A DNA stretch of 64,000 bases from Mytilus trossulus (taxonomy: Eukaryota). Below are positions 3,461 to 30,203 of the stretch, one piece after another. Made by a program: the position numbers and the translations under genes. The DNA is taken from positions 45,074,001 to 45,138,000 of the forward strand of contig NC_086376.1 in the NCBI RefSeq assembly GCF_036588685.1. Direction: 5' to 3'. A model generated the notes under the pieces. The model did no database searches. It saw only the letters and a program-made list of their open reading frames with translations, and was not told where the DNA came from. The stretch's first letter is position 1; each line of letters starts with the position of its first letter.

Positions 3461-5448
3461 TTAATGTCTGTTCCGAATACATCCAACAAGGCTTCTGACA
3501 AAATCCATCAGCTTAGGTGTTTTCTGCTTAGATTCGCTAACCTCCGATTGATGTTTTTTCTGTGATGATTTAAATTCTTCTTTTCTTTTCTGTGTTTCTC
3601 CCTTTGCTATACATTTTTCATATTTCTTCTGGTTCTCAGCTTTCTTTTTATCAATCTTTCTTTTCTTCTTAATTTTTTTTTCTTCTCGTGCTTTTTTCTC
3701 CTTAGATTCCTGAGCCTCCATTTTCCTTTCAATCTCCCGGGCCTCCATTTTTCCTTTCTTTTTTGATTCGTTTTCTTTCAGTTTTCTTTTCTTCTCAGAT
3801 TCCTTTGCTTCCATTTTTTCCCTTTTCTTTGCTGCTTTGAAGAGTTCTTTGATTCCAACCTTGTAATCATTGATCTTTTCAGCAGATACTTTTTTGTTAT
3901 CCGTTTCATTTATTTCAAGTTTGTCTTCTGTCATCTGAAATTAAAAAAGGTATAAAAAGGTATAAGGCTTCAATCACTGATTTGTTGCCAACTTAATGCA
4001 TACAGTATCAAGCATAAAGCATACTGCCGTAACATGCATAAAGCATACCGCAGTATCAAGCATAAGGCATACTGCAAAACCAAGCATAAATTAATAAGCA
4101 TAATTTTCTTTAGCTTGAGTACATATACTGGACACTTCTACGGTATTTTGTGTGTTTTGGACAAGTCTTTGGTGGTCTGTTTAGATTTTTTATTGAAAAT
4201 TTCCCTCCATACGTTGCTTCTTTTAAAAGAACAAGGAGATGTAGCATGATTGCATATGAGACAACTATCCATCAGTTACAAGAGAGCAAAGTTGCTAACA
4301 ATCATGAGGCACTGTATTGCCTTCAGTAATGAGCAACCTATTAGTTTGTTTTATACTGTTTTGGGTTTGATGCCTCATTCACCTATGGAACTTATCTTTT
4401 ACCAACATAGTACGTACCTGTAAAGCTCTCAGTTCATTGTCATCTTCGTTTTCAAATGAATTCAGGGATTCACCTCTTAAAAAAATATATAAGAAAGATG
4501 CTACTAGAACTACATGGATTTTGTTTTATTTTGGTTCGATCTTTTAGATATTTCAGTATCGATAACACAATGGAAAAGGGTGAAGCGGTAAGATTGCCAA
4601 GTTAACAACTACTAGTTTCCATCAGCGACAATCAAAACTTTGACGTTACCAACTACAGGCCCAAGGCGTAAGACGTTTTTAAACTACAAACATTAAAATA
4701 TTTTCTGAAACAACACATTACAGTTGCTGTATCTTAAGATATTAAAGTCAAATCCATGATTAAATGTGAACAAATAAAAAAGGGTAAACAAACAATATGC
4801 TAAAAGATGAACAAATCAAATATGGCAAACGGAGAAAATATCAAGATGCATATGGAAAAATTAACAGTTAAAATTATCACTTGAAATCATGACATTGTTT
4901 TACATTGAGATAGAATGGTGTTCACGCGCTCTACAAATTGTTTTGATAATGTTTGTTATACCTGATATTAACTCTGTAAGAATCACATACATTGTTACTG
5001 GGTTTTTTTTTCTCAATAACTTACTAGTAGCGTTATGATTGAAGTCATGCTCCATGCCATCATTTTGGAATATAAAATCCTTTTTATGTACAGGTGTATC
5101 ATCCCCTGCTCCATGTTCCTTCTTAGGTATGTGGAATGTAACTGTATGTTCTTTTTTTAAACCCTTTTCTTCGTCTGCATTTTCTCCAGCAGCTGACTTC
5201 TTTTGAGTTATTTCTTCTTATATATATATAAAAAAAAAGTATGTGAAATTATTGTAATCATAAAACACAAAAAAACCTGTTCATCAGTAATAGTATAGTT
5301 ATTTGTAGACTAACTCTCCGTAGTTTTGTTATTTTTTAAATGGTTTTGTTGGATTGTCATTCAATTAAATGAATTCGTGTTGTCACTGTTCGTTTCTTCA
5401 GACTCATATTTAAGAATAAACAAGACTTTTTAGTGATGGAAGAAAATC

Positions 5449-5485
<37 letters not shown>

Positions 5486-8400
5486 AAACAGACCAACATT
5501 TTAAAAAACGACATTGTATATGACAATACACCTCAACTGGTCATTCATTCAAGCCTCTCCATGCATGTACTGTACATTTGTCGGAAAATACGCGAAGTAC
5601 TAACATTACGTTATGGTAACGTTGTAGATAAGGTACCAGATACAGCTTCAGATAATGGTATGTATAAAATTATTCATTAAGAGTAATGTATGTGCGAGTT
5701 ATGTTAACAAAAATATTTAAAATTTTCAGAGGAAGAGCGGCAATAATGGCGTTTTGTTTATGCTTTTAATATGTACATGTAGTAATTTTGTGTCCTGAAT
5801 TTATACATCATATCTCTTCTTTTCGATAATGTTGTTGAATAATCTAAGTAAATCGTGCGTTGTGTTTTCTATACGTTTAATCGTTGTGATAGCTAATGCA
5901 TATAATATAACGTCACACAGTATAGCGTTATGGTAACAACGTTACCATAACGTAATGTTAGTACTTCGCGTATTTTCCGACATTCTGGGGGCCGACAAAA
6001 GTGAAATTTTTATATGAAAATATTAAAAAATGTAAATTCACAATATAGATAAATAAATATTTAAAATTAATGTCCATCTCAAATAAAATAATCTACTTCC
6101 TTAACCTTAAATAAACACAATTAAAGTTTATTTCTTGGTCCATTCGTGGATGTTTCTCCTGGCACACACGGCGGCTTCACGAAACGGTAATCGTCTTTGT
6201 ATGTTACTAGTTCCCGGTTGTTGAGTTTCACGTGTTTCCTTTGGGTGGATATTGTCACATATCTCTAAGGGATATAATTTGACGATGTAACAGTAGAGGG
6301 ATTCGCTTTGACAAATGGTAACTACGAAACCGCAGTCAACCTTCTCAGAGATCGGTTCGGACAACCTAGCAAACTGATACATGCTTACATGAAAGCACTC
6401 ATGAATTTACCCGCACCGACGAATGATGCTTTTAGTTTAAGGTCTTACGGAGACAGATTAGAATCATACGTACGAGGATTAGAGTCACTTGGTCAAACAT
6501 CAGAGATGTATGGTTCGCTTTTGGTACCTGTAGTTTTGGACAAGTTACCGATTGACGTAAGAAAATCTATTGCAAGAGAACACGGGAGAGATAATTTGAT
6601 GTTGCAAAATCTACGAAAATCAATAACTAAAGAGATTGAAATACTTGAGGCAGGACAGGGAGTCATGGAACCGGACAAATTGCACACCACAGCATTTTTC
6701 ACAGGTACACAACCAAGATCACACAATAAAGGTAAATTAACTGACACACGGAAGAAGGTAAATACGCATACATGTATTTTTTGTTCAGGTCAGCACTATC
6801 CAACGGAGTGCTCTGAAGTAACAGACGCAAACGCTAGAAATCAAATAGTAAAACAGAAACAACTATGTTTTAACTGTTTAGGGTCACACCGGGTGGCCGC
6901 ATGTAAGTCTACAAAACGGTGTAAAAATTGTAATGGAATGCATCATACAAGCATATGTAAAGGGAAAGAGGTCATTACAGATACGAAGCAGGAGCCGAAA
7001 ATACAGCAGACAGCTATCAACGTGGTTGAAACATCAGACACAACTAGTGTATTGCATGCATCACAAGTAAGTCCCGACATTCTCCTAAAAACAGCAACTG
7101 CACCAGTTATATATAATGACGTAAAAACAGAATGTAACATCTTATTTGACGAAGGAGCGCAACGTTCCTTTATCACTCAGAAATTAGCCGATAAACTTGA
7201 AATTAAAACAACGGGGAAAGTCAGCATTCAACTGTCTGCGTTCGGAGATTTATCTCAGAAAGTTCGTAACTTGGAAACTGCAACAATACAATTACAGACC
7301 GACACGGGAGAAAATGTGCGTATAAACACACTCATTGTGCCGGAAATTGCCGTCCCGATTCATAACAGTATTTCACATACTACAAAGAGCTTGCCACATT
7401 TGAGAGGACTTAAACTTGCAAATTCTGTACACAGTGGAGAGCGTTTTGAGATCGACCTACTAATAGGCGCGGATTATTACTGGGAAATTATTGAGGACAA
7501 AATCATAAGAGGAAAAGGACCCACCGCTGTACAGTCAAAGATAGGATATCTGTTATCAGGACCAACTATTGGAAATATCAGCCAGCATTCAAGATCTACA
7601 GTTCTTTTAAACGTCATTTCATCCCATCAATTGGAGGAGACAGAGATTGAAAAGTTTTGGACACTTGAGTCAATAGGAATCAATACATGTGAAAACAAGG
7701 AGAACAACAACTATTTACAGACATACCAGAACACAGCTATTGATTACGAGAATGGAAAATACACAGCAAAGTTGCCTTGGAAAGTTGACCACCCAGATTT
7801 GCCTTCAAATATGGCCATTGCTAAAGGTAGGACCGATAATATAATTAGACGTCTAAACCGGGAACCGGACTTGCTACAAAAATACAGTGAAATAATCAAT
7901 GAACAAGAAAAGAGAGGATTTATAGAGAGGGTTCCAGATATGGAAGATGATAACAACAATCATATGATTCACTACATTCCTCACCATCCTGTTAAAAAAG
8001 ATTCCGAGACTACCCCTATTCGTATAGTGTACGACTGTAGTTGTAAACCACAGCAAGATTTAGCAAGCTTAAATGATTGCTTAATGTCAACACCACCAAA
8101 TCTAAATGACTTGACGAAAATATTAATGCGATTCAGAATCGGAAAATATGGTATCAGTACAGATATTGAAAAGGCATTTTTACAGATAGGACTTGACAAG
8201 AAGGATCGTGACGCTACACGTTTCTTTTGGCTAGCTGACCCCGACGACCCACGTAGCAATCTTACAACTTACAGGTTTAAATCGATATTGTTTGGCGCAA
8301 CATGCTCACCATTTATTTTAAATGCCACTCTACTTAAGCACTTGGACGAAAATGAAAATAGTATAACACAAACGATGAAAAGGGACTTATATGTAGACAA

Positions 8401-11400
8401 TATTCTGTCAAGCGTTGAGACTTATGACGAAGCCATTGCATATTTCAAGGATGCGAGAAATGTCATGTCAAAGGGAGGATTCAATTTGCGATCTTGGAGC
8501 TCAAACTGCAGTGATTTAACTGAAATTGCAAAAAACGAAAATTTAGCCGAAAAGAACATAACGGTAAAAATACTAGGAATGATATGGAACACTGAAAAAG
8601 ATACAATTTCTTTTCATAAAGTTAATGTAACGGATATTAAGGAACCAAACATAACAAAACGTGAAATACTGAGTCAATCATCTCGAATCTACGATCCTAT
8701 GGGATTACTTTCGCCAGTGTCCGTTAGGGCCAAAATCTTAATGCAAGACCTCTGGAAAGACAAACTTGAGTGGGATGAACCACTACCGTTAAACGTACAA
8801 CAACAGTGGATGGAATTAGCTAGAGACTTAGAATTTTCAACAAACACAGAGTTACCGAGACAGATTTTAACTAAGAGTACAGATGAACCAAAACAGTTAC
8901 ATGTTTTCGTTGATGCCAGCCAGAAAGCCTACGGATCAGCTGTTTATATTACAAATGGACAGCAGTCAACATTAGTATTTGCTAAGAGCCGTGTTGCACC
9001 TATAAAGACGTTGACATTACCACAATTAGAACTAATGGCCGCTGTGATAGGAGCTAGAATTGCAACACACGTAAAATCAGCTTTATCAATAAACAAAGTC
9101 ACGTATTGGTCGGACAGTCAAATAGTTTTACACTGGTTAACAACGACTAAACATTTGAAAAAATTCCTTCACAACAGAATTACAGAAATTAAATCTTTAA
9201 CACAGGATTCAGAGTGGAAATATTGTCCAACGAATGACAACCCTGCAGACCTATTGACAAGAGGAATCAGCGCTTCACAACTAGCAGATGCTAAACTGTG
9301 GTTTAATGGACCGGAATGGATCAATTGTTCAAAATCTTGGCCGCAGTGGACACCTAACACATGCATTCTTTTAACGAATATAGATCAAGAGGAGAACGTT
9401 ACAAATACAATTGAAGGGAATAATACACATGGCATTCATTGCATACTGGATATTATGAGATACAGTACATTAACAAAGATACTACGTGTTAGTTCGTGGA
9501 TTTACCGATTCATAGCGAATTGCCGCAAATCACGCTCACAGAGAATACAGAGCAAATTCATCACATGCGAGGAACTACAAGCTGCAACAGAAAAATGGAT
9601 AATAAGTGCTCAGAGGATTTCATTTGATAAAGAAATCAGGACTTTGAAGTCGCAATCGAACACACCCAATACTTTAATTCGACAATTACGACTATATATA
9701 GACGAGAAAGAAATTATTCGTTGCCGCGGGAGAATTCATAATGCTCCAATTAGTGAAAATTCAAGATTTCCGTGTTTATTACCAAATAATTATCATTTCA
9801 CTGAATTGCTTATATCGGAAGTTCATAAGAATTTAAAACATTCAGGAGTATTAGCCACAGTCACCGAGATTCGCCAAAATTATTGGATACCTAAAATACG
9901 TCAACAAGTGAAAAAAGTTCTTCGTAAATGCGTCACTTGTCGTAAAGTAACCGGAAAACCGTACAGTGCGCCAGATCCTCCACCTCTACCAAAGACAAGA
10001 TTAATGGAAGCACCACCGTTTACCGTCACAGGTGTTGATTTTACTGGAGCGTTATATGTTAAAGACAATAACGGACAAGGGAGCAAAGTATTCATATGCT
10101 TATTTACATGTGCGTCAACGCGCGCAGTGCATTTAGAGGTCGTCACAGATCTTAAAGAAAGATCTTTTTTACAAGCGTTCAGAAGATTTACGAGCCGCAA
10201 GTCTTTGCCGAGAGTGATGATATCTGACAATGCGTCAACATACATGGCCGCATCCGAGACTTTAGAGAGACTAACCAAATCTGAAACCTTAAATGATGCG
10301 TTATCCGTCTGTGGAACGACTTGGAAATTCATAATAAAACGAGCTCCCTGGTATGGTGGTTGGTGGGAGCGCTTAATAGGACTAACAAAAATGTGCTTAC
10401 GAAAAGTTCTTGGAAGATCGTACATTACATTGGAGGATTTACAAACAATAGTCACCGAAATTGAAGCCGTGTTGAACGATCGGCCTTTAACGTATGTGTC
10501 CACCGACATCGAGGATCAGGAACCTTTGACACCATCGCACCTGCTTTATGGGAGAAGGATTACAACTACACCGTATCCACGACAAGACATCGACGAAAAT
10601 ACAAGTTTCATAGAAAGAAGCGACATTTCTAAACGTGCTGAACTACAAAATTTCGTAATTGACCAATTTTGGTCACGATGGAAATCAGAATATCTTACGT
10701 CGCTACGTGAATACCACACCAGAACAGGAGATAACGACCAGACAATTAAAGTGGGAGATGTTGTTCAAATCCATGAAGACAAGTATCCAAGAAACAAATG
10801 GACAATTGGAGTCGTTGATTCTTTAATAACTGGAAATGATGGACTTACAAGAGCAGCCGAAGTGAGAACAAAATCCGGACGCTTTTCACGACCGATCGTC
10901 AAATTATATCCCTTAGAGATATGTGACAATATCCACCCAAAGGAAACACGTGAAACTCAACAACCGGGAACTAGTAACATACAAAGACGATTACCGTTTC
11001 GTGAAGCCGCCGTGTGTGCCAGGAGAAACATCCACGAATGGACCAAGAAATAAACTTTAATTGTGTTTATTTAAGGTTAAGGAAGTAGATTATTTTATTT
11101 GAGATGGACATTAATTTTAAATATTTATTTATCTATATTGTGAATTTACATTTTTTAATATTTTCATATAAAAATTTCACTTTTGTCGGCCCCCAGAATG
11201 TCGGAAAATACGCGAAGTACTAACATTACGTTATGGTAACGTTGTTACCATAACGCTATACTGTGTGACGTTATATTATATGCATTAGCTATCACAACGA
11301 TTAAACGTATAGAAAACACAACGCACGATTTACTTAGATTATTCAACAACATTATCGAAAAGAAGAGATATGATGTATAAATTCAGGACACAAAATTACT

Positions 11401-12129
11401 ACATGTACATATTAAAAGCATAAACAAAACGCCATTATTGCCGCTCTTCCTCTGAAAATTTTAAATATTTTTGTTAACATAACTCGCACATACATTACTC
11501 TTAATGAATAATTTTATACATACCATTATCTGAAGCTGTATCTGGTACCTTATCATCTGTTTTCTTGTCTTTATTCAGATTCTCTCCTTCGTCTGTTGAA
11601 ATTTTTAATATTACAATAAAAAGTTTATTTAATACCTACTTATCTGTGCGTCTAGATGAATATTAGTTTCATTTAAAAAAAAAAACTATATTATAATTTA
11701 AAAACAAAAGATGGAAATACAAATAGTTCTGGTACAAGCATGACTAAACAGACGAGTACGCCTTTAATTTTGTAGTTAACGGTTGTAAATTGCCCGGTTT
11801 TTTTTTTTATTTCATTCATGAAGATAATATGAAAATTTTTAAAAAAAGTGGTATAATTATCCTTATCCTTCAAAGACTTTTAAAAAAACGTATGCTCATT
11901 AACAAAGACCTCTCCTCCATGTACTATTGTGTATTTACTCACCTGTCGTATCTCCAAATGAACTATCCTCTTGTAAATGTGTATAATTATCTCTTACAAT
12001 TTCCATTCTTGTCCAAAATTCTAATTCTTGAGCGGACTTTGCATTTTCCTTAAATTCAATGATAAGCTGCTTTTTTGCAGCCTCTAACTGCTGGAACCGA
12101 GGCTGGAACGGATTATCTATGTCATCCAT
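3461..12129 (-). CDS. Uncharacterised ~325-aa protein with an acidic N-half and Lys/Glu-rich C-half; 5 coding exons; BEL element in an intron
   Basis: Exons 12129-11943 (MDDIDNPFQPRF...GDTT), 11592-11524, 5216-5025, 4473-4418 and 3934-3461 are all GT-AG and phase-compatible (1,1,1,0), giving 978 nt with no internal stop. The 4473 acceptor (GAG) is weak. Confidence 0.6.
4003..4088. repeat. Short tandem repeat (~27-bp unit, cagtatcaagcataaagcatactg-like, 3-4 degenerate copies)
   Basis: Repeated 'aagcataaagcatac' motifs read directly. Confidence 0.6.
5579..5625 (+). repeat. Remnant of the 5' LTR (first 47 bp)
   Basis: Identical to 11199-11245 and immediately follows the TSD ACATT. Confidence 0.88.
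5627..6286 (-). repeat. 660-bp inverted duplication of 10895-11554 (end of pol, 3' UTR, 3' LTR, TSD and ~200 bp of host flank)
   Basis: Reverse-complement match with no mismatch seen by eye. ORF 6128-6382(-) ends in the same residues as the pol C-terminus. Confidence 0.93.
6287..11053 (+). CDS. BEL/Pao Gag-Pol polyprotein, N-terminally truncated
   Basis: Three CCHC knuckles (CIFCSGQHYPTEC, CFNCLGSHRVAAC, CKNCNGMHHTSIC), protease LFDEGAQRSF, RT YVDN, RNase H FVDASQKAYG, integrase HHCC with GVDFTG/SDNA/GGWWER. The ORF begins mid-gag (VTVEGFALTNGNY) at the rearrangement junction, so the track's TTG start is not a real start. Confidence 0.93.
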   Translation, partial: VTVEGFALTNGNYETAVNLLRDRFGQPSKLIHAYMKALMNLPAPTNDAFSLRSYGDRLESYVRGLESLGQTSEMYGSLLVPVVLDKLPIDVRKSIAREHGRDNLMLQNLRKSITKEIEILEAGQGVMEPDKLHTTAFFTGTQPRSHNKGKLTDTRKKVNTHTCIFCSGQHYPTECSEVTDANARNQIVKQKQLCFNCLGSHRVAACKSTKRCKNCNGMHHTSICKGKEVITDTKQEPKIQQTAINVVETSDTTSVLHASQVSPDILLKTATAPVIYNDVKTECNILFDEGAQRSFITQKLADKLEIKTTGKVSIQLSAFGDLSQKVRNLETATIQLQTDTGENVRINTLIVPEIAVPIHNSISHTTKSLPHLRGLKLANSVHSGERFEIDLLIGADYYWEIIEDKIIRGKGPTAVQSKIGYLLSGPTIGNISQHSRSTVLLNVISSHQLEETEIEKFWTLESIGINTCENKENNNYLQTYQNTAIDYENGKYTAKLPWKVDHPDLPSNMAIAKGRTDNIIRRLNREPDLLQKYSEIINEQEKRGFIERVPDMEDDNNNHMIHYIPHHPVKKDSETTPIRIVYDCSCKPQQDLASLNDCLMSTPPNLNDLTKILMRFRIGKYGISTDIEKAFLQIGLDKKDRDATRFFWLADPDDPRSNLTTYRFKSILFGATCSPFILNATLLKHLDENENSITQTMKRDLYVDNILSSVETYDEAIAYFKDARNVMSKGGFNLRSWSSNCSDLTEIAKNENLAEKNITVKILGMIWNTEKDTISFHKVNVTDIKEPNITKREILSQSSRIYDPMGLLSPVSVRAKILMQDLWKDKLEWDEPLPLNVQQQWMELARDLEFSTNTELPRQILTKSTDEPKQLHVFVDASQKAYGSAVYITNGQQSTLVFAKSRVAPIKTLTLPQLELMAAVIGARIATHVKSALSINKVTYWSDSQIVLHWLTTTKHLKKFLHNRITEIKSLTQDSEWKYCPTNDNPADLLTRGISASQLADAKLWFNGPEWINCSKSWPQWTPNTCILLTNIDQEENVTNTIEGNNTHGIHCILDIMRYSTLTKILRVSSWIYRFIANCRKSRSQRIQSKFITCEELQAATEKWIISAQRISFDKEIRTLKSQSNTPNTLIRQLRLYIDEKEIIRCRGRIHNAPISENSRFPCLLPNNYHFTELLISEVHKNLKHSGVLATVTEIRQNYWIPKIRQQVKKVLRKCVTCRKVTGKPYSAPDPPPLPKTRLMEAPPFTVTGVDFTGALYVKDNNGQGSKVFICLFTCASTRAVHLEVVTDLKERSFLQAFRRFTSRKSLPRVMISDNASTYMAASETLERLTKSETLNDALSVCGTTWKFIIKRAPWYGGWWERLIGLTKMCLRKVLGRSYITLEDLQTIVTEIEAVLNDRPLTYVSTDIEDQEPLTPSHLLYGRRITTTPYPRQDIDENTSFIERSDISKRAELQNFVIDQFWSRWKSEYLTSLREYHTRTGDNDQTIKVGDVVQIHEDKYPRNKWTIGVVDSLITGNDGLTRAAEVRTKSGRFSRPIVKLYPLEICDNIHPKETRETQQPGTSNIQRRLPFREAAVCARRNIHEWTKK
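11199..11348 (+). repeat. 3' LTR (150 bp)
   Basis: TG...CA ends, preceded by cggcccccagaa at the PPT position, ATTAAA signal at about 11300, followed by TSD ACATT. Contains the hairpin CGTTATGGTAAC-GTT-GTTACCATAACG. Confidence 0.85.
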
Positions 12130-12761
12130 ATCTAAAATAAAGGTTTAACATGTGTGAATTAAATAAAAGGAGGTGATGAAAAATATATAGACAACTGGAA
12201 CAGGATTCCTACCTTTTACACTATTGTTTTTAAGTTCCGTATTGGTTATTGTGTTGGGAATCGTGTAAAGGCTTTATACAACGAATGCGCACGCTGCATG
12301 GATAACGTATTATAAAGCGCAATGCACAACGCTGAAATCAATTCGTGTGATTTCCCCGACTGTTTAACAATTATTGCTTTCATGGCTTTACTTTCTTATA
12401 ATGCAATTAAATATTGACTAATTTTGCGTTAAAAAAGATCTATTAATCTTGTACGGACAACACTAAAATGTTGACAGTACAAATACACTAAAATATTAAC
12501 AGAACAAAAAAACAACAACTATAAGCTCAATCTTTTTGTGCAGTTTACTTTAAGCACACAATTTGTTTTCAAAGTAAAATCATATTAAAATCAGAATTTC
12601 GTAAATTCTCCTTTCCGTCGCATTTATACAGAACCATGAGAATGCTTAATGTGATGAAAATATTTTTTTCAAGAATAAATTAATATCCATAAACTTTAAC
12701 TTATTTACATATTTCATACAGTAAAATCGAGAGAGAAAATAATTTTCATTTGTTTTCTTAC

Positions 12762-13802: not shown

Positions 13803-16800
13803 AATATATATATATATATATATCTTTATTCTGACAAACCTTCGTAAATACAATGGTATACAGAAGTTACATGATTGTAATAAATAACACAGTTATAAAT
13901 TAATAACACAGTTATAAATTAGAGAAAACATAATATGTACACTATTTACAAATACATGTATAAGTTGAGTTTAGCCAGGAGAACACACACATGAATTAAT
14001 ATGCCTTATAAATGTACATAGCTTTTTTAAATATGATTGTTTTTTCATATTCATTATTTCCTTAAATTTAATTATATTTGGATAATCAATATACTTTTTA
14101 GCGATATACTTTTGTCTTTCTATAGCCATAAATTTACACTTCATTACATAGTGGAATTCATCTCCAAGATCTTTTAAGTCACATAGTTCGCATATTCTTT
14201 TATCTCTCTGAATTTTTTTCCATCTTCCACTTTCAATAGGTAATCTGTGGTTAATGAGTCTAAATTGACACAAAGTATAAATATCACGGGGTTCCAAAAT
14301 GTCTAAATACTTTTCGAATCCGAAAAGTTCCTTAAAAAGGCGATAATTTAATGTTTTTGAGCTCGTTTGAATATCTGGGTACCATGTTTGTTTAAATTAG
14401 AGATGTTCTTACAACAGTCTTTAACCAAATTTCATTTACACAAGTTTGAGATAACCATACATAAGATAAACCAGTTTCATTAAGGATAAATTCTATACAT
14501 TTCATCCAATAAAGTTTAACATTATTTCCATGATATAAACTAAACATTAATTTGTATGCAATTGCTGATAATTTACTGGGTTTGCTAAAAATCAGTTTCG
14601 CCCAGTATGAAATCATGCGAACCTTGATATCTAAACTAATAGGATAACGTCCTAATTCTCCATATATAACACAATTCGGGGTAGAAGATTTAAGATGTAG
14701 TAGAAGTTTACAAAATTTCAAATGAACCCTTTCTAATATATCATTATTTCCAAATCCCAAAAATTCACAGCCATAAAGTAAAACAGGTTTTACCAATTTA
14801 TCAAATAAATCTAATTGACAGCTTATGGATAAGCCATGCTTTCTCCCCTTTTTGATAACTTCATACATGGCTCTCGTCGCCTTTTCTGCGAGATGCTTCT
14901 TGTTTGCTTTAAATGAGCCATTTTTTGAAAAATAAATCCCAAGATAATTAAACTCATTTACAATTTCTAAATCAGTATTACCATAATTAAATTTAAGATC
15001 AGCAGGTTGTCTACCATTGCAAAAAAATCATGATTTTAGTCTTATCTACATTGACTTTCATTTTCCAAACATCACAATATGATTCGAATTTTTCTAATAA
15101 CAAATTAAGTTCTGTGGCTGATTCAGCCATTAATACAGTATCGTCTGCGTAAAGAATTGCAAACAGTTTAACATATTGTAACGGCCGCGGCCTGTCCCGT
15201 GGGGAGATTCAAGTTTAGGAGGGATATTTTTATTTTAAAATATTTTCATTATCAAGTACAAAAATACTGAATGTGATCACCGGTGAAATGGCACAGGACC
15301 CACCACTTCTTTTTCACGTTATTACAGTTATAAACATATTGAATTATTATTAAATGTGCTTCTTACCTTTACTCAATACTAGTTGGCATTTTCGTGGTAG
15401 TTTAACATATATTTTTAGGGGTTTATAAGGTATTGTGCAGCGTTAATGTTGCACGACACAGTCTGTTATGTTATATTGTCGTCAGCCATTATTGTTGACG
15501 TTATTGTATTGCATCTTGGGACAGCGCAGGTGGCATGACGTCACAGACGTTACCATGCTATTGGCGTTATGTCTTTAATGAACTTTGTGTCGCACCGTGT
15601 CGTACTCATTATAAATACGGAAGTTCGCATCTCTCGGGTTCAGTCTTGTCTTTTCTGGGCACCATATCCAAATAATATAAAGTCACCATTTGCACAATAA
15701 TATTGTCGTATTGTCGTTAAGGTGGGCACAATTAACATTAGTGTCGAAAGTAATTTCGATTCATTTTATCTATAACAATTCATTTATCCTCCTAAAGAAA
15801 ACAGTTAGCTTTTATTAAAGATAATATATTGTTTTAACTGTGTCTCGACACGACACGGTCCCGACACTGCTAGAGTATAATTTCTAGGAAATAGATGAAA
15901 TCCCTTTGAGAAGAATAGTAAAGATACACGAAATTTATTATCGAGTTACACAATTGAAATTAAGTCTCAACTACAAGATAATATTTATTATCATTTATTG
16001 AAGGCCAACGGGGTTTTTCATTGACACATATAGAATCAATTCAAAGTACGACACGCTAGTGACACAATTTAGAGCTATCATTTTGAATATTTATTACTGA
16101 ATCAGTATAAAGTAGATTGACACTCACAGAGACAATAAACTGTTAATTATACGAACAATCATAATATCAAACATTGTTTATTGAAGAATATAATTTTATT
16201 GTTAGAATTATTGTGTACTATTTGTGCTAATACCCTTGTGTCTATCATATTTTGATACCAGAGCTAACTACCACGAATGCCAGTAATACCCATATATTAA
16301 TTCCCCTTTTTCTCACTTGAGTTTTAGGTGCACCACATATTACTAGAGCAGCCAATAGTGTTTTAATTGTATATAATATACTTATTTATATAGATATTGT
16401 TCAGCCTGTATAAACCATAATTATTTTGGTTAATAAATCATTAACTTTATTCAGTATCATTCTATAAAAGCCATACAAGACTCAAACTCGGTACTGATTA
16501 CAGATTCGTAGGTTGCTACGCAAACACATACAAATATAGTAGCAATCCTCTGAGTACGTAACCTACGACCTGTTTTCAGGTATATAAAATTACCAGACAC
16601 ACAACGTTTATAAGAAAGTCGTCCGTCACCGGAAGTTGGAACCCTCAGCCCGCTACAATATATATCTAGTTCGTCTTCTAGGGCATCTGATATAGTTTTT
16701 AAGCCTATCAAATTCCCTTTACAAAAGTAAAATCTTCCAAATCGTTCAAAAAAAGCGAAAAAAGAAAAGGGGATAAATTCTCCCCTTGGCGTAGAACAAT

Positions 16801-17890
16801 GTTACTTGGAAAATAATCAGATTTTTCACCATTGTATGACAGGCATGATTTTATATCAGCATACATGTTATGAATAATCTTATACATATAACCATTAATA
16901 TCATTTACTAACATCTTATACCATAAAGCATCTCTAGTCACTGTGTCAAATGCTTTCTCAAAATCGACAAAAGCACAGAACATTTTTTTCTTTTTTAATT
17001 TCAAAATTTCAAAAAAAGAGTGTAATGTAAAGATACAATCACAAGTTGAGTAACCATTTCGAAATCCACACTGATTTTCATTGAGTAGTAAAACTTCATC
17101 AGAGAATTTTGCAAGTCTATTACTTAAAATAGCTGTAAATAATTTACCCATACAACTTACAATAGTAATGGGTCTATAGTTTTTAGGATCAAACTTATTG
17201 CCTTTGTTTTTATAAAATGGCTTAATCGTTCCAATCACCCAAGATACTGGTACTATTCCAGTTCTAAAAATCAGGTTAAACAATGCAGCATAAACATCAA
17301 TAAAAAAATCACCAGAAGTCTTAATATATTCGTTAATAATCATATCATCACCACAAGCTTTGTTATTTTTTAAATTCTTAATACATTTTAATATTTCTTC
17401 TTTCGTAATTGGACTATTCAAATTATCATTCAGTTCACTCATCAAATTTGTATCATTTGTTGGCAAGTCAATTGGATCTGAGTTACCTGAGTTTAGCTCT
17501 TTGAAAAAGTTGAGTAAATCCTCAAAATCAATATTCGGTTGTTTTGAATGTTCGCGTTGGTTCAAAATTTTCCAATACTCTTTGGTGTTTTGAGATCTAA
17601 GATTTTTTAATTTTCGAGCCATATCTTTTTTATGTTTTTTAATAGCCTTGTCCATGACCTTTTTATATCTTTTCTCAGATTCTTTGACTTTATTAGATAA
17701 TAAAGGCGAAGGCCTCGCCTTAAGCTTGCGCTTAAATTTCCTATAATTCTGTCTCTCAAATTTACACTCAAGGTAAAACAAATTAATTATTTACAATTTT
17801 TTGATAAATTATGATCAAATTAGCATCAATATCTTTATTTGTTTTTCCGATGGATCTTGGTAAACGTTAATTATATTATTTAAAAGAAAC
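13803..17890 (-). mobile_element. 5'-truncated, frameshifted non-LTR retrotransposon (LINE), split by a solo LTR
   Basis: ORF pieces 17781-16708 (NYRPITIVS, FVDFEKAFD, RQGENLSPFLF), YADD at about 15150, 14868-14392 and 14297-13971 (C-terminal CxxC...DEFH motif). The 3' end has AATAAA followed by a (TA)n tail at about 13803-13830. Confidence 0.9.
15177..16657 (+). mobile_element. Solo LTR, 1481 bp, Gypsy-like
   Basis: TGTAACGG...CCGCTACA terminal inverted repeats and 4-bp TSD ATAT (15173-15176, 16658-16661). Removing it restores the LINE RT reading ...DELDIY|VKLFAILYADD. The TATA box (~15611) and AATAAA signals are on the plus strand. Confidence 0.88.
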
Positions 17891-18900: not shown

Positions 18901-19301
18901 AAATCATTTACAATAACAGTAATGAAAACATAATCAACCTAGTTCAAGTTTCAGGGGCGGGTCCATTCATTTTAAAAGGGGGTTCCTAACCCAGAACAAG
19001 GTGGTCCAATATATGTTAAAGGCCATTGTTTACTGTTCACCTTTTACATAATAATAGAATTCACAAACATTTATGTTTTACAATTAATGTGGTCATGTAC
19101 CTTTTGCCATTTTAGATCTTTCTCGTTCTAATTTTACACCTTCAGTTTTCGGTTTTAAGCTACCGCTGCAGTTCCGTTTTTGATTTTAATATTACTATGT
19201 GTGGTTCACTTCCGTCAAAAAATATCACAATCTTCTTTGCTTTGGAAATATTTCTAAAGAGATTGTAATTTCATTTAAAGGAGATCCATTTTGGGCATTA
19301 A

Positions 19302-22300
19302 ATGTCTCTCGTCGCATACTATACTTCTAGTGACAATGACAGTGAAGACGAGACGGATGTCAAACACCATAAAAACAGCACCAATGGCAATGGGGAATCT
19401 GTAGTACAAACAACAACAAATGTTTCCTTAGAAAAAACGACGAAATCTGAAAATGAAAGGCCACACAAGACCCAAGAGTTTCAAAGTTTGATACATGATG
19501 TTGATGATTCTGTTAATTCCCTCTTAAAAAGTATGTCCATGTGTCTACTTCATTATTTTTTTTTTCTCATAATTTCTTCAAATAATTCAGTGTTCTCCCA
19601 AGGCTGTTTTATCATCACGGTACCATGAAGCAAATTATGTATTTTTCCTGTGATGCAATAAATAATTCCGTTATGCTATAATTGTTTTGAGGATGGAATT
19701 TTTCCTTTCATGTTACTACAGTACTAAACATTTGTACATAATACATTTCCATAAAAGTTAAAACCAATGTTCATATTTTAAATTTTGATCTACATGTTTG
19801 TATACTGCTTGTGATCATAAAAATTGTATCGCCTAAAATCACATACCTTTAAGTCGGACTATAGAGGCAATTGCCCTTAGGGTGATATCTGTTACGATAT
19901 GATAAAAAAAATTACAGACTTGTATGCACTGATTGCAAACTTTGACAAAACTACAAGTCAAATAACCATGAAAATATGATTTTCCTTAATCCACAAAAAT
20001 TGGTATTCACATCAGTGAATGAACCCATACTATATTATGATTAATCGTACTTCCTTCTTTAACATTAACAGATTTACCTGCACCAAAAACAGTGACACAA
20101 TCTGATAGAAAACAAGATGATTATCTTGAAGATGCAGTCAAAGCAAAACCATCACAGATAGCAGATGCACCGAAACCTCCATCAAAAACTAGAAAGCCGG
20201 TGAAAATATCTATCCCTACCATTGATTCGGTAAGATTATTTCTTTATATTTCAATTTAAGTTTGGAATATGCATGATTGTAAAACTCTTAAAGGGAAGTC
20301 ACTTAGTGAGTTTGGCAGTTTTCTATGAAGAAATTTTTCAATCTGTAAATACATGAAATAGTGATGGATGATTTCAATTTTTTATAAAGTCAGAACAATT
20401 GGGTGTCATAATTTATATTTCTTTCTTTCAAGCGGACATTTACATGTGCATCCAACATGCATTTTGTCTTAACCAAGGGAGCATGTTAAAAATAGTCAGA
20501 TACATTAGATTAAGATATGTGATATTTATTATGAGTAAGCAACCAAACAATAAAAAAGAAGCATAAAGGCATCTACAGATCAACATATGCATGGTATGCA
20601 ACAATAGACATATGCCCATACGGGTAATCAAGCTCTAAATTACACAAACTTCTTACATAAAGTTTGATTTTTAGTCATATTGTATGGAATTTTCATGTTC
20701 AAATTCTTCTTTTTTGCCATTTACATTTGTACTTATTTATCAATTTTGTTTAAGGGCTCATATAGTAGACATTTGAATATGATTCTCATGAATTTGTCAG
20801 GTGTTTATTAATTAAGTGTGCTAAAATCAGCAAAAAGATACATGTATGTATTTTTTAATTTTCAGGATTCAGATGATGAAAAGGAACCAAGAAAAAAGAA
20901 ACAGAAAATAGGTCCTCAGACAGTAGGTTATTGATTTACTATGAAAGAGAGGTCGTGTCAAGGGGACGACAGTAACCAAACTATGCAAACATGAAATCAA
21001 TAGACTTTGTCTGGCTGAGGGAGACAAATTCTGTTTGAATGTAGAAAAAGTACCAATTTAACTTTTTGCATTACAAAAAAATTTCATTAAAAGAATACTG
21101 TGACATAACTATTCAAATCATAAATGTTCATTTGGTAACTATTTTTATATATATATATACATCTTTAAAAAAAAACTTTACTAAGAAAATGTTCATTCAC
21201 GGTAAACATATTTGCAGATGATAATCTCATTTGCTGTGGAGAAGGATTTCATGACTTGACGACATTTTTACATACCATGAAAAGCAGTTAAGTTTAAGGA
21301 TTACAATCTCTTATCACTACAGTTTTCAATTGAGGTAATCAATAAATGTTGATGAAGTTCATTTTAGTTTTGTCAAATGCTGGTTGGGGCATGTGTTACC
21401 AACTTTTTATGTGTTTTTACACATGTATAAGAGATCCAACAGTAAATTTTAATAACCTTGTTAAATTTATATTGATTTGGTGATATCTATTTAATCACAT
21501 AATTAATATCATTACAGGGCAAAACAGGATTGACAGCAAGCTTACCTCCTCCTATTCATTCTTCAAGAAAAGAATCTGGTAGAACATTATTACCCTATGT
21601 ATTCACGAAGAAGAAACAAACAGACTCTAAGCCAGTGAAAAACAGTACTAACAACAGTGTGAAATCATCGACTGTTTCTAAACCTGATACTACATCATCT
21701 AAGACTTTAAATATTGCCACGTATGGTAGTGAAAGTGATGATAGTGGAAATGAAGATGACTCATCAAATTTCTTTTCTCTAGGTTCAGTTGAACAGACAG
21801 TTAAACCTGCTGAATCATCAAATTTTTTCTCATTAGATACTCAAATTCAGCCCATAAGATCTGGTGTGCAACCAACTATGCATTCAACTTTACCTAAAGT
21901 AAATTTAAATCTTCCTCCTCCAATTAAATCTGTTGAAACAAAAGTGACAATAGAGACTAACCAATCAGATCTATCGACACAACATACAAGTTTGAAGAGA
22001 GGTATTACTGGGAATGATTCCTCTATTGGGGAAAGTTCTAAAAATCAAGACAAGCCATCAAATATGAGCTCTACCATGGAAAATGCACCATTGTCTTTTA
22101 AATCTACAATGAAAAGACCTTATAGAAATTTTCAAAGTTTTCATACTCCAGAAAGTTCTTACCAACCAGGAAATTATGAAACAGACACAGTAGGTCCTAC
22201 TATCTGTGAACAGAACGCTGAGGTAATGGTTTATTTTGGTCAGAGTTATTTTCATGTTGGGCAAGTACATTTTAATTTCATAGTGCTTCAGATGAATGGG

Positions 22301-25009
22301 GAAACAGATTTAATAAATTTGACCCAGTAGAGTTCATTTGACTTTGGTGAGGAAGTTGCGTCTCTTTTTTGCTTTGCTTTGTCTGCCTGCCAAAAACTAC
22401 AATCGATTCATTCTGGAGTTGTAACAGTCCCTTTCTTTATCAATAATTTTATATTTTTGGTTAGGATGATGTAACTTCAATCTTTCATTTATAAGTAAAG
22501 AAATTAAAAGACAGAACCAATTTATATTCTTGTTCATCGAAACAAAGTAAAAGCATTGAACCTGGCTGTAGACTGATTGTATTTTATTTGAAGGAAAACA
22601 ATGTTTTATGTAAACACATCACCAGGTAGTTTATTTTCACTCTTTTTTTCTGTTTTAATTACATGTACCTTTACTCAGGGTTGGAAAATGTCCATTGAGA
22701 AAATTATAGATCTTGAAAGTTTTGTTGGAATCTCCTCTCATATATATTTAAGTGCTTTTACAAACAATTTTTAAACATCAATGCTGATGATTTCATTAGT
22801 AAAGTTGAATACCAAAAATCTCTTGGTAACGAGATGAAATAAATGTATAAGACCTTTACATAAAAAAGAAAGATGGACGTCCTTCACAAGAGAAAGGGTA
22901 ACATCACATCTCTTACTGTGTTTATTTTAGCATTACCTGCATGTATATGAAAGAAAGATGATTGCCACTAGATATTACCATGTGCTGTATCTTTTTATTT
23001 TAGGTTGAAGGCTATTCTAATGTAGATGACATCAATGTATTACAGCAAGATGAAGAGGTATGTATTTTCAAATTGAGGCTATAAAAGAAATTTGCAACCT
23101 TCCCATTTTATGCTTATATTTACTGGTAAAACTGAAACTTATGTTAAATTTAATTGCAAAGACTAGAACAAAATTAATATCTGATAATTAAAGCCTGTGT
23201 TTTAATTTTTGTCACACTTGTGTAAGTCAAATTTGGTTAAAAGAAGGAATTGCTTTTCTTTTATATCTACTATATATACATGTAATTTACATTTTTGTAC
23301 TACAAATTAATATGAATGAAATTAATTGAATATAATCAAATTTTGAAATTATTATGTAAAACTTAATGAATTGGAGAATATCACAATAATGCATCATCAA
23401 TTGTTCAAGATTCCTTTGAAACTTTTCACTAAAAAAAAACTTACAATAAAAAATACTTGAATGATTTGAACATTTTAAGTTGACTTGAAAAACAAGTTTT
23501 TTAGTGAAAAAAAACAGTGAATTGAAATTGAATTATAATTTATAAGGTTTTATTATGATAAATCAATTGAATACAAATATTCTCAACTTAGTAAAAAAGT
23601 AGTATTTAAGGAGAAAACATTTGTACAGTAAAAAGCAGTGATCATATGTTGATTGTTTGTTTTTTGTTATTTTGTAGTTTCTTAGGTTACAAGGTAAACA
23701 CTCACGAGGTAAAGAACCTATACAATTTGTAGATGTCAATGCTGATGATTTTATTAGTACAGCTGCATACCAAATAGCCCTGACTGAAGAGACAGAATAC
23801 AGACCTTCTCATAAAAAGGGAGAGGGACCTTCTTCACAACAGAAAAAAAAACATCACATCACTTATCTAGCTCACCAGGTAAAGTATCATTATTTTTAAA
23901 CATTTGACATTACTATTGAAGAACAAAATATCAGGAAAGTTAATACATGTACAGATAATAGATTTTTTTCAAATTACCAACTTTTGACCCTGAAGTATGT
24001 AAATTTTTGTCAGGCTACCTTCTATTTGGTGGTATATTCTGGTTCTTTGTCAAGTAAGAGCAACTAAATGAAGTAAAATCAAGCTTACAATCGGTGTAAT
24101 TTAAATGAAGCATAATTTTTATGCCCCACCTACGATAGTAGAGGGGCATTATGTTTTCTGGTCTGTGCGTCCGTCTGTCCGTCCTTCTTACCCTCTGTCC
24201 TTCCATCCATTCGTTCAGGTTTAAGTTTTAAGTCAAGTTAGTTTTTGATGAAGTTGAAGTCCAATCAACTTCATTCTTAGTATACATGTTCCCTATGATA
24301 TGATCTTTCTAATTTAATTGCCAAATTAGACTTTTAACTCAAATTCAGGGTCCACTGAACATAGAAAATGATAGTGCAAGTTTCAGGTTTAAGTTTTTGG
24401 TCAATGTAGTTTTTGATTTAGTTGAAGTCCAATTAACTTGAAACTGTGTACACATGTTCCTTAGGTTATGATCTTTCTAATTTAGAATTATATTTTTATC
24501 CCAATTTCACGGTCCACTAAACAGAAAATGATAATGGGAGTGGGTATCCGTGTACTATTGACACATTCTTGTTTTGTTTACTACACATAAGAAAAACTAC
24601 TGGCAAAAAGTTAATTTTTCCCCAAACTGTGTTTGTAGTCTAGAAAATAGACTTATTAAATAACCCAAGTGTATACTGATAAAAACTATCAATATCAACA
24701 AACTATCCTTTTTCACAAATATGTCAAGCTCTGAATTGTCTCAAGTCTAGAATACATGTAGTTGTGAATAAATCTTTCAGAGAACTATAAAGATTTCCAA
24801 GCAGTACAAAATTCACACGTTGACAAAATAATTAAAAATGCCTTCTTTTTCCATTATATTATATCAATTTGTATTTAGTGTGACAAAAATTCTTTAAAAA
24901 AATATATATATTTTAATTTCAGGCTAAAGAAAGAGAGATTGAGCTGAAAAATGCTTGGTCGCAGAATGCGATGTCCAAAAGACAAACACAAGCAAAATAT
25001 GGTTTCTAA
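19302..25009 (+). CDS. PRCC: Proline-rich protein PRCC homologue, ~496 aa, 7 exons
   Basis: Exons 19302-19530, 20072-20229, 20866-20922, 21518-22222, 23004-23057, 23678-23878 and 24923-25009 are all GT-AG and in phase. N-terminus MSLVAY..SSD; C-terminus FLRLQGK...KKHHITYLAHQAKEREIELKNAWSQNAMSKRQTQAKYGF. AATAAA at about 25108. Confidence 0.93.
22765..22914 (+). pseudogene. Degenerate duplicate of PRCC exon 6 within intron 4
   Basis: 'tcaatgctgatgatttcattagta...ttcacaagagaaa...acatcacatctctta' aligns to about 23722-23866, with in-frame stops and indels. Confidence 0.75.
24115..24573 (+). mobile_element. Helentron-associated non-autonomous (DINE-1/HINE-like) element
   Basis: T-rich start, 5' stem-loop atgcccc...ggggcat, (GTCC/GTCT)n microsatellite, two internal ~160-bp tandem units, 3' end gtgtactattgacacattcttgtt. 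Confidence 0.65.
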
Positions 25010-28000
25010 TAGTATGTGTAAATATAGAACAATTACAATACACGTGTGTCAGCTTAAATTATAAATGTGTACAAAGTGGAACATGTTGTACACATAAAGG
25101 ATGTAAAAATAAAAGTATGTGTCATTAAAAAAGATGTTCTGACAATTTATCTATACCCAGCCCTGTAGCAAAGACTAGGCCAGTGATGTTATGTTAACAT
25201 CCTGTCTTCCATTCTAATGTGCATGTGTCATTTGAACATGGTTTCTAGATTATCTCTTATTTCATTATCTAAATTTACTACTCTTAATTAACACTTCATT
25301 ATTTGCATTTCTAGATTATAGAGAAATTTATAAAACAAAAATCAATGAAAAACATTTGGATATTGTTTATTTTAAGCAATGAAATACATGTATTCATATT
25401 GTGGGGGAACATCCTTTGTGAAAAATGTAGAAAAAAAGAAACCCTGCATGAAGTTGTGGTCACATTAACTTAAAACTAAAGTACAAAATTATGATGAAAA
25501 CTTTTAAATATAAGGATTTGCAGAATTCTTGTATTTTATGGAAAAGATTAAAAAAAAAAAAACTAGAATGCCTTCAATTAAGTAATTCTTATAAACAACA
25601 ATAAATTATCAACTAACAACCTTACTCCATAACAAAGTTTGTCAAAAGCTACCCAATACAATAAAACTGTTTTAAGGAAACTAGCTTTTCAGGTAGATAT
25701 TTGCCCAATTAAGATTTTGCCAAAACAGTTGTTTGAAAAAAAAAGGAAAGGAAGGGCCAATCAGAAATGAAAGTTAAAAAAAGGACAACCATGGCAAAAA
25801 AAAAAAGTAAAAACACAAAAAGTCCACAAAACACACTATTGGTTGAGCATATCAAAATAAATTAAAAAATATGAGCGATGGGAACACCACCAAGAACTAA
25901 GGTAGGACTGATTTGTTTTTAAAGAGTAAGCATTTTAAACTCCACAAGTAGCACATGTCATGTTAACATTGGGTGATCAAATAAATAAGAGCACAAAGTT
26001 CTGAATTTGGACATATGTGACTGTTTACTTTGGTTAACCTCTGATAAATCATGTGAAATTTAAAAAAAAATAATAGTAAGGAACTACTCAACACAGGTCC
26101 ACTTTTAATTGACCAATTTCACACTTGTCTTTCCAGAGTTATGTTTCTTTATTAAATGGAAAATAGGAGAATCTTGTGTTGTTTTATCTAATTGGTTGCT
26201 TGTTGTTAAGAAACACTGTCTTAAGAGGATAACCTGGTTTCAAATCATGGAGAAAATAAACAAATGGTCCATTTCTAACAAGATTACTTTGTATAAAGGC
26301 TCATTTGAAATGTTTCTTTTTCATGGTTCAAAGAATGAAACCATTTAGTATTATTCTTTGATTTTTATTATTAGTAATGATTTAAGAAATTTCATTGGTA
26401 TTTAATCTTTGAGGGTAATTGAAGGAAAGTATGATTTATAAAATTTTTGTTTTGGCCTTTTAAATTCAGAAATAAGAAATATTGATTTTGAAAATCAGGA
26501 AGCAGTTTATTTTCATATAATGACTGCCAATACCAGGCTGTAAAATGTAAAATAACAAAAGTTAGAACTCATAGGAAAATTCAAAACAGAAAGTCCTAAT
26601 CAAATGGCAAAATCAAAAGTTCAGAAACATCAAACCGATGCATAACAACTGTTATATTCATGACTTGGAACAGACATTTTCTTATGTAGGAAATGACAGA
26701 TTGAACCTGGTTTTAAAGCTAGCTAAACTTATCCCTTCTATGACAGTCATATAAAATTCCTTTATATTGACAACAATGTGTGAACAAAACAAACAGACAT
26801 AATAAGTAAAAATGTTAAAACTAGGGGTACAGCAGTCAAAATTATGTTGTTATATTAATCACTATAGAAACAGACAAATATACCAACAATGTAAAAGAAA
26901 ACACATATCTACAAAGTACATTAGCAAAAACAAACGACAAGAACTCAAAATTGACCATAGCACAATAACACAATGGCAGGATGTACAGTACCCATCCTAG
27001 ACATAATAAAATTGAGAATGGCAATGGGGAATTTGTCAAAGAGACAATAACCTTGACCAAAGTACAGACAACAGCTGAAGGCCACCAATGGGTCTTTAAT
27101 GCAGCGACAAAATCCATCACGCATGGGTGGTCATCACCTGGCTCCTAAAAACAATGTTGTACTAAATCCAGTGGAATAGAAGTATATAATAAAAAATCCT
27201 GAGGGTATCTAGAATAAAGTTTGTGTTTTATTTTCTGTTTTGTCAAAAACATGGCCGCCATGGCTAAAATAGAACATGGGGGTAAAATGCAGTTTTTGGC
27301 TGAAGTATTTATAGCAAATCTGATATGAATTAAAAAAAAATCATAATTAGGTCAAGTTCTATCTGCCATGAAATTTTCAGATGAATCTATCAAGCCATTG
27401 TTGGGTTGCTGCCCCTAAATTAGTAATTTTAAGGAAATTTTGAAGTTTTTAGTTAATAAAAATTACTAATGTTAAAGATAAACTTTAACAGCAAAAATGT
27501 TCAGCAAAGTAGGATCTACAAATATGTTGATATGATCTAAATTGTCAATCCACCCCTTAAGGAGTTGCTGCCCTTTAAACAGATTTTTTTCTTAATTTGT
27601 TCATCTAGTTTGCTTGCTCTATAACTGCTGAATCAATTTCAGAATATCTAGTAAAAATTTTGTATTTCATTTCCTTGTACATCAAGAAACATAGCCACTT
27701 GGACTAAAATGGAACACGGGGTAAAATAAAATTGAGGATGGAAATGGGGAATGTGTTTAACATGAAACCCTATGGGAAAAAACAGGGAACTCTTTTTGTC
27801 AGAACACACTGTCAAACATTTACAAGTCATACTATCCACACTGATCTGTGTCCACACTTGTTAACATATAATATTGTTTTACAATGAATGTTATGTATAA
27901 CAGTATAAGCAAGGAGGTTGTATAATTTCCTTGGTATAGGCAAAGTTGGTCCAATTTAGTCCGACGGTTCAATAGTAAGTATGACAGTTCGATTGTCCGA

Positions 28001-28214
28001 CGGTTCGATAATCGACAGGATGACACATTAAAATAAAAGTCGAGGGTCATAAATATTTCCATATTCGGCCCTCTGTCACAGGGTGGTTATTCTGCCCTTT
28101 CAAACCATTTAAAAATTTCTTAGCTATTTCTCTTTTCATTCGCAAATTAACGGGCATGGTCGGAAGATAGATTCCTGGCTGCTGTACCGCATTAGCAATG
28201 ATTGAGGTGTTTAA

Positions 28215-29010
28215 ATATATTCAACGATATATGAAAGATGGCATATTTTGAATTAATATTGATTTACTAATAGTACCCTTGCATCGGAAATAAACACATC
28301 TATTCTAAATAAATCATTAAAGATGGCCTTTTTTTTATTATTAATTATATTGATTTACTAATAGGGACTTTTCTTCTAAACTAAGCACATTTATTCTAAT
28401 CATTAAAGATGGCATATTTTTGGAATTAATATTGGTTTACACATAGGGTCTTTGCATCGCGGGAAATCAACACATTTATTATAAAACCAGTTGTTGACAT
28501 GGCACGGTTTTGTGACAGTTCTCTCATATTTTATGATAGTATGATACTAAACCCCTAACATAAATGATTGTGCTCGATATGCACATGATGAAGACATAAT
28601 TTTTCAATCAGTGTAATTGAGGTGTGAGGCTTGCGTGTCAGTAACTGACGTAACAGCTAGTAAGCCTTTGTTAATGTATGTATCATTGTCACTTTGCTTA
28701 GTTTTTTTTGTTGCGTTTACTGGCATTGGACTCGGACTTCTTTTAATTAAACTGAGTTTTACTGTGCGTATTGCTGTGTGATAATAAATAAGCTTTATTT
28801 AGAGTCGGCAAGGTATACAAACATAGACAAAAATAAGCTCTAATTAGCTTTTAACAAACATGATTGTTTATCCTCATTGACTTGAAGTATAAAAGGGGGA
28901 CCGGGTTGAGATCTCACTAAACATGTTAAACCCCGCCGCATTTTTGTGCCTATCCCAAGTCCGGAGCCTCCTTCCTTTCAAGTGTTAGTCTTGTATGTGT
29001 GGGGTTTTTT
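28215..29010 (+). repeat. Abundant dispersed repeat with three ~85-bp tandem subunits at its start (duplicate at 31784-32579; related copy 52430-53175)
   Basis: Shares the 'aaaccagttgttg.catg...ggactcggacttctttt...gttgagatctc' sequence with 52430-52800. Confidence 0.7.
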
Positions 29011-29042
29011 TTTATTTACTCTGATTACGTTCTACTTCATAT

Positions 29043-30134: not shown

Positions 30135-30203
30135 CACGGTGGGTATGGTTGTCCTGCGAGAGAACGTACTGTGCTGGTGATTTGGTCCTGACGGGTGCTG
30201 GTG
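30135..30203 (+). repeat. Duplicated left TIR of the Transib-like element
   Basis: Identical to 33704-33772 and preceded by the same CAATT. Confidence 0.9.

Follow-up and report, generated by a model that had tools for sequence, protein, structure and literature searches.

An allele with geometry like that considered here is Mu killer of maize, a deleted and partly duplicated derivative of the DNA transposon MuDR that silences its own family; a hairpin transcript is the usual account, with the read-through part of that account disputed by one study (PMC3440606). Composite Ac/Ds insertions likewise give rise to double-stranded RNA (dsRNA), small interfering RNAs (siRNAs) and heritable repression (10.1101/2020.01.07.897926). 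For animals, a survey of 32 molluscs reports, in the available part of its text, no evidence of endogenous siRNAs, suggesting editing as the fate of endogenous dsRNA (PMC12479628; Mytilus is absent from its main text), and siRNAs of this kind derived from transposable elements are concluded, in the portion of a second study available, to be absent from most animal phyla (PMC6085071). BEL/Pao long terminal repeat (LTR) retrotransposons have been characterised in molluscs (PMC6238403), Mytilus has ADAR genes (PMC6651903), and sense-oriented LTR polyadenylation signals truncate host transcripts in mammals (PMC1794541); all of these reports are drawn on in part. The subject of this analysis is a rearranged BEL/Pao copy, in antisense orientation within an intron of a Mytilus trossulus gene, in which the front end of the element has been replaced by an inverted copy of its own tail together with adjoining host DNA. 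It lies in a stretch of 64,000 nucleotides (contig NC_086376.1 of assembly GCF_036588685.1, positions 45,074,001 to 45,138,000), hereafter the window.

Within the window, the reverse complement of 10895-11554 recurs without a mismatch at 5627-6286 (660/660 bp), so that the two arms are identical, as had been proposed from the letters alone (the sequence-only reading). Among 56 inverted pairs detected it is the only one above 100 bp, the runner-up being 93 bp at 86% identity, and it is far beyond chance; the window is also free of any N. The right arm is made up of 159 bp of the end of pol, 145 bp of 3' untranslated region (UTR), the 150-bp LTR, a 5-bp target site duplication (TSD) and 201 bp of host DNA, the last matching the roughly 200 bp of flank that the sequence-only reading had described along with the LTR and TSD. 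In all, 454 of the 660 bp match the element family, and the arms are separated by a loop of 4608 nt. At its outer end the right arm runs 31 bp (11524-11554) into a host coding exon and includes the 5' splice site of that exon: the element does lie within a host intron, as had been suggested, but the outer 31 bp of the repeat do not. Two properties had gone unmentioned: the repeat covers a host splice donor, and the LTR of the left arm is flipped into host-sense orientation. Coordinates are collected in Table 1.

Table 1. Features of the rearranged element and of its host gene, in window coordinates. LTR, long terminal repeat; TSD, target site duplication; ORF, open reading frame; RT, reverse transcriptase; UTR, untranslated region. 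X1, X2, X6 and X7 are sequencing runs described in the text.
Feature	Position	Strand	Basis
Left TSD, ACATT	5574..5578	+	sequence match to right TSD
5' LTR stub, 47 bp, ending 2 nt past the loop of a palindrome with a 12-bp stem	5579..5625	+	equals LTR start
Junction 1: 1 extra base, microhomology at most 1 base	5626	.	sequence comparison
Left arm, inverted copy of 10895-11554	5627..6286	-	660/660 match
Left-arm parts: exon piece 5627-5657; donor and intron 5658-5827; TSD 5828-5832; LTR 5833-5982; 3' UTR 5983-6127; pol end 6128-6286		-	
Complete LTR copy in host-sense orientation, ATTAAA at 5876-5881 (putative poly(A) use)	5833..5982	-	
Junction 2: 2 bases foreign to the arm and to family contigs, zero overlap	6287..6288	.	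X1, X2 and X6 family contigs match from 6289
5'-truncated BEL/Pao gag-pol ORF (gag C-part, protease, RT, RNase H region, integrase)	6289..11053	+	domains, family alignment
Right arm, template of the copy	10895..11554	+	
3' LTR, 150 bp, TG...CA, palindrome 11229-11255	11199..11348	+	
Right TSD, ACATT	11349..11353	+	
Upstream host coding exon, start Met at 12129	11943..12129	-	
69-nt host coding exon, phase 1-1, skippable in frame; last 31 nt and GT donor 11523-11522 in right arm	11524..11592	-	
Host intron GT...AG, 6307 nt, element inside in antisense orientation	5217..11523	-	joint 5216/11524 in X6, X7
Downstream host coding exon	5025..5216	-	
Last two host exons, about 4418-4475 and 3461-3934; lysine/glutamate-rich Mytilus protein	3461..4475	-	

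Of 22 sequencing runs listed, 20 contain part of 4300-12200; four were examined, as contigs, namely the DNA runs X1 and X2 and the presumed RNA runs X6 and X7, both of which contain spliced joints. Such contigs can show presence but not absence. Those of X1 and X2 join 5572 to 11348, skipping 5775 bp, which is an empty site; the insertion is therefore polymorphic. Family contigs from X1, X2 and X6 continue into normal gag upstream of 6289, and the animals of the examined runs appear not to be carriers. A scan of Joint Genome Institute (JGI) metagenome contigs for the pattern of the LTR start gave 0 matches.

The element has the BEL/Pao set of Pfam domains in its usual order (DUF1759, DUF1758, RVT_1, Peptidase_A17, Integrase_H2C2, DUF5641; RVT_1, at 29.5, falls just under its cut-off of 29.6), together with TG...CA LTRs and a short TSD (ACATT on both sides). 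In domain set and order, short TG...CA LTR and 5-bp TSD it resembles the described mollusc elements, from which it differs in being 5'-truncated and rearranged (PMC6238403, in the part drawn on). Its reading frame is still open, as the earlier description had it, over 1591 codons (6278-11053), and the encoded protein, P0002, heads a cluster at 90% with 14 members, including 10 labelled Mytilus trossulus and 3 ENA proteins. Among the 14, three keep the ORF unbroken over 1811-1812 amino acids and are 99.0-99.5% identical to the window copy over 1587-1589 residues; family contigs are also present in X6 and X7. The 47 bp retained at 5579-5625 are the first 47 bp of 11199-11348, as stated earlier, and nothing is left between LTR base 47 and gag codon 225, which bears out the suggestion that the rest of the 5' LTR, the primer-binding site and the start of gag had been replaced. 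Measured against P0124, the copy lacks the first 224 codons, and LTR bases 48-150 are missing along with the leader, the usual place of the primer-binding site. An autonomous copy would have this site and a complete gag. Because full-length relatives are 99.0-99.5% identical, and because these 224 codons, LTR bases 48-150 and leader are missing, the family is, judged from its sequences, young and the window copy defective. With the LTR promoter region and everything to mid-gag gone, including the normal place of the primer-binding site, this copy would be transposition-dead on its own.

How did the rearrangement arise? The 0 differences in 660 bp bound arm divergence at less than 0.45%, which agrees with the claim that the event is recent, and the presence in the copy of the TSD and 201 bp of flank from the same haplotype supports the view that it followed insertion. 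Over 11348-11776 (about 430 bp), the empty-site allele in X2 differs from the window by 18 letters plus gaps, whereas the copied flank is identical to the window haplotype; because of this, the sequence places the template in cis, on this very chromosome or on its sister, and the copying at the time of integration or later. The left break is 2 nt past the loop of a palindrome in the LTR: perfect hairpins with a stem of at least 11 bp and a loop of 3-8 nt occur in the window only in LTR copies, and the break lies in one of them; judged by length, such a coincidence has a probability of about 1%, although the test is post hoc. The palindrome itself (11229-11255 and 5926-5952) has a perfect 12-bp stem and a 3-nt loop and is the sole one of its size in the window; X2 contigs carry a different letter at 5950, inside the stem.

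The sequence of events that probably yielded this structure begins with a break or stalled fork at the LTR palindrome. From there, 660 bp would have been copied in reverse from 4.6-6 kb downstream, on the same or the sister chromatid, and joined without homology, so that a single repair event would have removed the front end and replaced it by reversed tail and host flank. The sequence-only reading called the event template-switch-like, which is possible, but junction microhomology of at most 1 base fits end joining equally. It had also set the second junction at 6286/6287: the arm does end at 6286, but family-matching sequence restarts at 6289, not 6287. The assembled sequence combines a deletion, gain of a nearby copy and two strand-switching junctions on one haplotype, a loss plus inverted duplication like that of local two-jump rearrangements, in which, too, neighbouring DNA copied in inverted orientation fills a deletion on a single derivative chromosome, with a copy-and-paste signature. 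The local two-jumps compared were described as somatic events of human cancers, whereas this one is sub-kilobase, is in a mussel assembly and involves a retrotransposon and a host exon. Three other routes were considered and rejected. A rearrangement formed while the element was still being reverse-transcribed, prior to its integration, would not account for a TSD and flank that belong to the present insertion site. Neither recombination of one LTR with another nor recombination through the LTR palindrome fits a template that begins within a host exon and outside any LTR. Classical microhomology-mediated switching, as the sole route, is at odds with junctions that share at most 1 base.

The host gene was delineated from homologues and RNA contigs. 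Six Mytilus proteins match the minus-strand exon 11943-12129 at 76-84% identity, and tblastn searches with these six place further exons at about 11528-11593 (5 of 6), 5025-5217 and 3461-3940; the 69-nt exon is absent from one of them (P0139). A Pfam search with the host proteins P0136 and P0140 gave no match. Contigs of X6 and X7 splice 5216 to 11524 with CT..AC ends, which on the minus strand are GT-AG, and the splice sites in the window are canonical. Because X6 and X7 contigs are near-identical to the window over the last host exon (2 differences in 278 letters and 4 in 472, about 99% identity), the window's host locus itself, rather than its paralogues only, is likely to be expressed. X6 has two joints at the end of the 69-nt exon, 5216/11524 and 5217/11528, a sign that some alleles or paralogues may have a shorter exon. 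The X7 joint 5114/11943 was considered as exon skipping and rejected, as other letters lie between. The join of exons 5 and 6 falls at 4473-4477 and 5023-5025, where RNA contigs of other animals join 4475/5024; protein P0135 (151 amino acids) stops at the same place as a 153-amino-acid frame of this join, considered below.

Since the gene is spliced across the site in other animals, pre-mRNA from a carrier would contain both arms. Its order would be the right arm, 4608 nt of antisense element, and the left arm, whose end is some 410 nt short of the acceptor (5217). Such a transcript, running from 11554 to 5627 over the two arms, could fold into a 660-bp stem that would be complete before the 3' splice site is made. 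The predicted energy of the duplex is -1141 kcal/mol, against -80 for a competing 47-bp stem. Three consequences in cis seem likely from this model: burial of the donor of the 69-nt exon, leading to in-frame skipping or mis-splicing; early polyadenylation in the now sense-oriented LTR (5982-5833; ATTAAA at 5881-5876); and nuclear adenosine-to-inosine (A-to-I) editing within the stem, while few siRNAs, if any, would be produced. In the open model of the gene, skipping of the 69-nt exon gives 302 instead of 325 amino acids and keeps the frame.

Both effects on processing have described counterparts. As with inverted Alu pairs (PMC13019027, drawn on in part), an intronic inverted repeat is predicted to alter exon inclusion through a stem in the pre-mRNA; there the exon is looped out between imperfect repeats, whereas in the mussel the donor and 31 nt of exon would be hidden inside a perfect stem. 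Between the arms no exon of the host gene was detected, the end of the 69-nt exon falling in the stem itself, and loop-out skipping or a circular RNA was rejected on that ground. As with sense-oriented intronic LTRs (PMC1794541, again in part), a complete LTR carrying a poly(A)-like hexamer lies in host-sense orientation within an intron; here it came from local inversion of an antisense insertion, and use of the signal is putative. Poly(A) hexamers alone were rejected as a discriminator, as an AT-rich intron has many.

The reading preferred here, with a probability of roughly 0.55, is that of a young antisense intronic BEL/Pao copy carrying a repair scar whose main effect falls on the host gene rather than on the element family. 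From its sequence the rearrangement is probably real, and the term silencing allele describes the locus less well than does a repair scar that captured the splice donor of a host exon. Each component is of a familiar type, whether the defective BEL/Pao copy, the scar of local inverted duplication or the inverted repeat that alters splicing. Several observations weigh against this reading. The host gene has close paralogues (76-84% identity), which are a possible source of some of the RNA joints. At the join of exons 5 and 6, use of the first AG shifts the frame, with a stop after 153 amino acids, and the AG two bases on gives 325; the host allele may thus itself be weak or already impaired at this join. 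On the host strand of the element there are 10 AATAAA/ATTAAA hexamers (8312-11154), 5 of them within 500 nt of the donor, and as these lie upstream of the second arm, transcripts might therefore end before it. Pairing across a 4.6-kb loop would also have to beat U1 binding, and is itself a prediction. Finally, neither rearrangement junction is among the joints listed (15 of 33) from the four runs, whose contigs prove presence only.

Another possibility, clearly less probable but the strongest of the alternatives, is that the scar is real and has no measurable effect: the stem would be rare or resolved and the intron spliced and degraded, leaving a neutral private variant. This would suit a polymorphic insertion (empty in X1 and X2) next to a 69-nt exon that can be skipped in frame and is absent in one homologue, in a host allele that may already be impaired and with poly(A)-like hexamers upstream of the second arm. 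It fits less well with a duplex of 660 bp without a mismatch (-1141 kcal/mol), which takes in the donor and whose second strand can already have been made when transcription reaches the acceptor.

That the structure is an artefact of assembly or library construction (a chimeric or amplified molecule, or a misjoin) is unlikely. Arms that are 100% identical are what such an artefact might give, the junctions are missing from the joints listed, and a 3.57-kb tandem duplication at 99.94% identity lies only 16 kb away. Two separate joins would nevertheless have had to restore collinearity with a deletion, and neither has the homology needed by an overlap misjoin, both carrying extra bases (1 and 2). 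Fold-back read artefacts place their arms adjacent, which these are not. The truncated protein P0002 is present on a 96.3-Mb contig, which is of the same assembly and so not independent, and the window has no N.

The sequence-only reading had drawn a different conclusion, that the allele is a source of siRNAs against its family in the manner of Mu killer. The geometry stands, as does the point that in other animals the host gene is transcribed and its RNA spliced over this site; the siRNA step is weakened by the mollusc surveys, by the location of the stem in pre-mRNA and by the 4608-nt loop. In this scheme, the RNA driven by the host would be either the intron after excision or a capped transcript that gains its poly(A) tail in the inverted LTR and has a stem of about 430 bp; processed to Dicer products or piwi-interacting RNAs (piRNAs), it would silence the family in trans, which is quite improbable. 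An inverted duplication of transposon sequence, as in Mu killer, is present, with 454 of the 660 bp of arm matching the family, and the intron is spliced in RNA contigs from non-carriers. Potential targets are 99% identical at the protein level, with family contigs in the RNA-type runs; maize Mu killer and the Ac/Ds composite insertions offer a precedent (PMC3440606, 10.1101/2020.01.07.897926), and molluscs have somatic piRNAs (PMC12479628, in the part available). Set against these are the failure to detect an endogenous siRNA pathway in molluscs in the available parts of two studies (PMC12479628, PMC6085071), the position of the stem in a nuclear intron with a 4.6-kb loop, and the dispute in one study over the hairpin model even for Mu killer (PMC3440606, in part). 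A plain antisense insertion, moreover, already yields antisense RNA without any inversion and would feed piRNAs equally.

Comparison with the maize alleles (PMC3440606, 10.1101/2020.01.07.897926, both in part) shows the same mixture. Shared features are a deleted, partly duplicated and inverted derivative in a host transcription unit and near-identical active relatives. The maize cases are DNA transposons in a plant with siRNAs and RNA-directed DNA methylation (RdDM), and their silencing is demonstrated, whereas the mussel locus, known from sequence alone, is an LTR element in a clade reported to lack endogenous siRNAs, with its 3' end duplicated, a host exon in the stem and a 4.6-kb loop. A more elaborate version, in which the repair accident made a self-contained hairpin gene, with a host promoter, a donor blocked by the stem, a poly(A) signal in the flipped LTR and a family duplex of about 430 bp seeding small-RNA silencing, is marginally more improbable again. 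If true, it would give Mu killer a counterpart among the LTR elements of animals, and in one believed to have no endogenous siRNAs; no animal LTR-element killer allele turned up in the literature searches made, which is weak evidence given limited coverage.

Least probable of all is that the insert was reverse-transcribed from host pre-mRNA and captured at a break: on the + strand it does equal an unspliced piece of the host transcript, and a family encoding reverse transcriptase is present, but a DNA template gives the same letters in fewer steps, and the insert has no poly(A) tail, new TSD or splicing.

As it most likely stands, a repair scar acting mainly on the host gene, the locus would illustrate, cleanly and at a very recent date, that a retrotransposon copy can be disabled by repair at an LTR palindrome, the same step converting a tolerated antisense intronic insertion into one able to interfere with host splicing and termination. 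It could also serve as a natural test substrate for the handling of long endogenous dsRNA in molluscs (editing, distributive dicing, piRNA entry), a point raised in the mollusc survey (PMC12479628, in the part available). Such use depends on live carriers, and the allele may be private to one animal.

Several further features of the window were observed. The tandem duplication mentioned above (27840-34980) consists of two head-to-tail 3.57-kb copies with 99.94% identity, and is either genuine and very recent or falsely duplicated in the assembly; a tandem array with a 60-nt unit, its copies about 80% alike, occupies 41700-43700. On the minus strand, 13971-17790 contains reverse transcriptase fragments resembling those of long interspersed nuclear elements (RVT_1 at 16711-17790), apparently interrupted near 15178 by another insertion starting TGTAAC. 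A multi-exon neighbour gene lies on the plus strand at 19300-23900, its exon at 23678-23878 matching Pfam PRCC.

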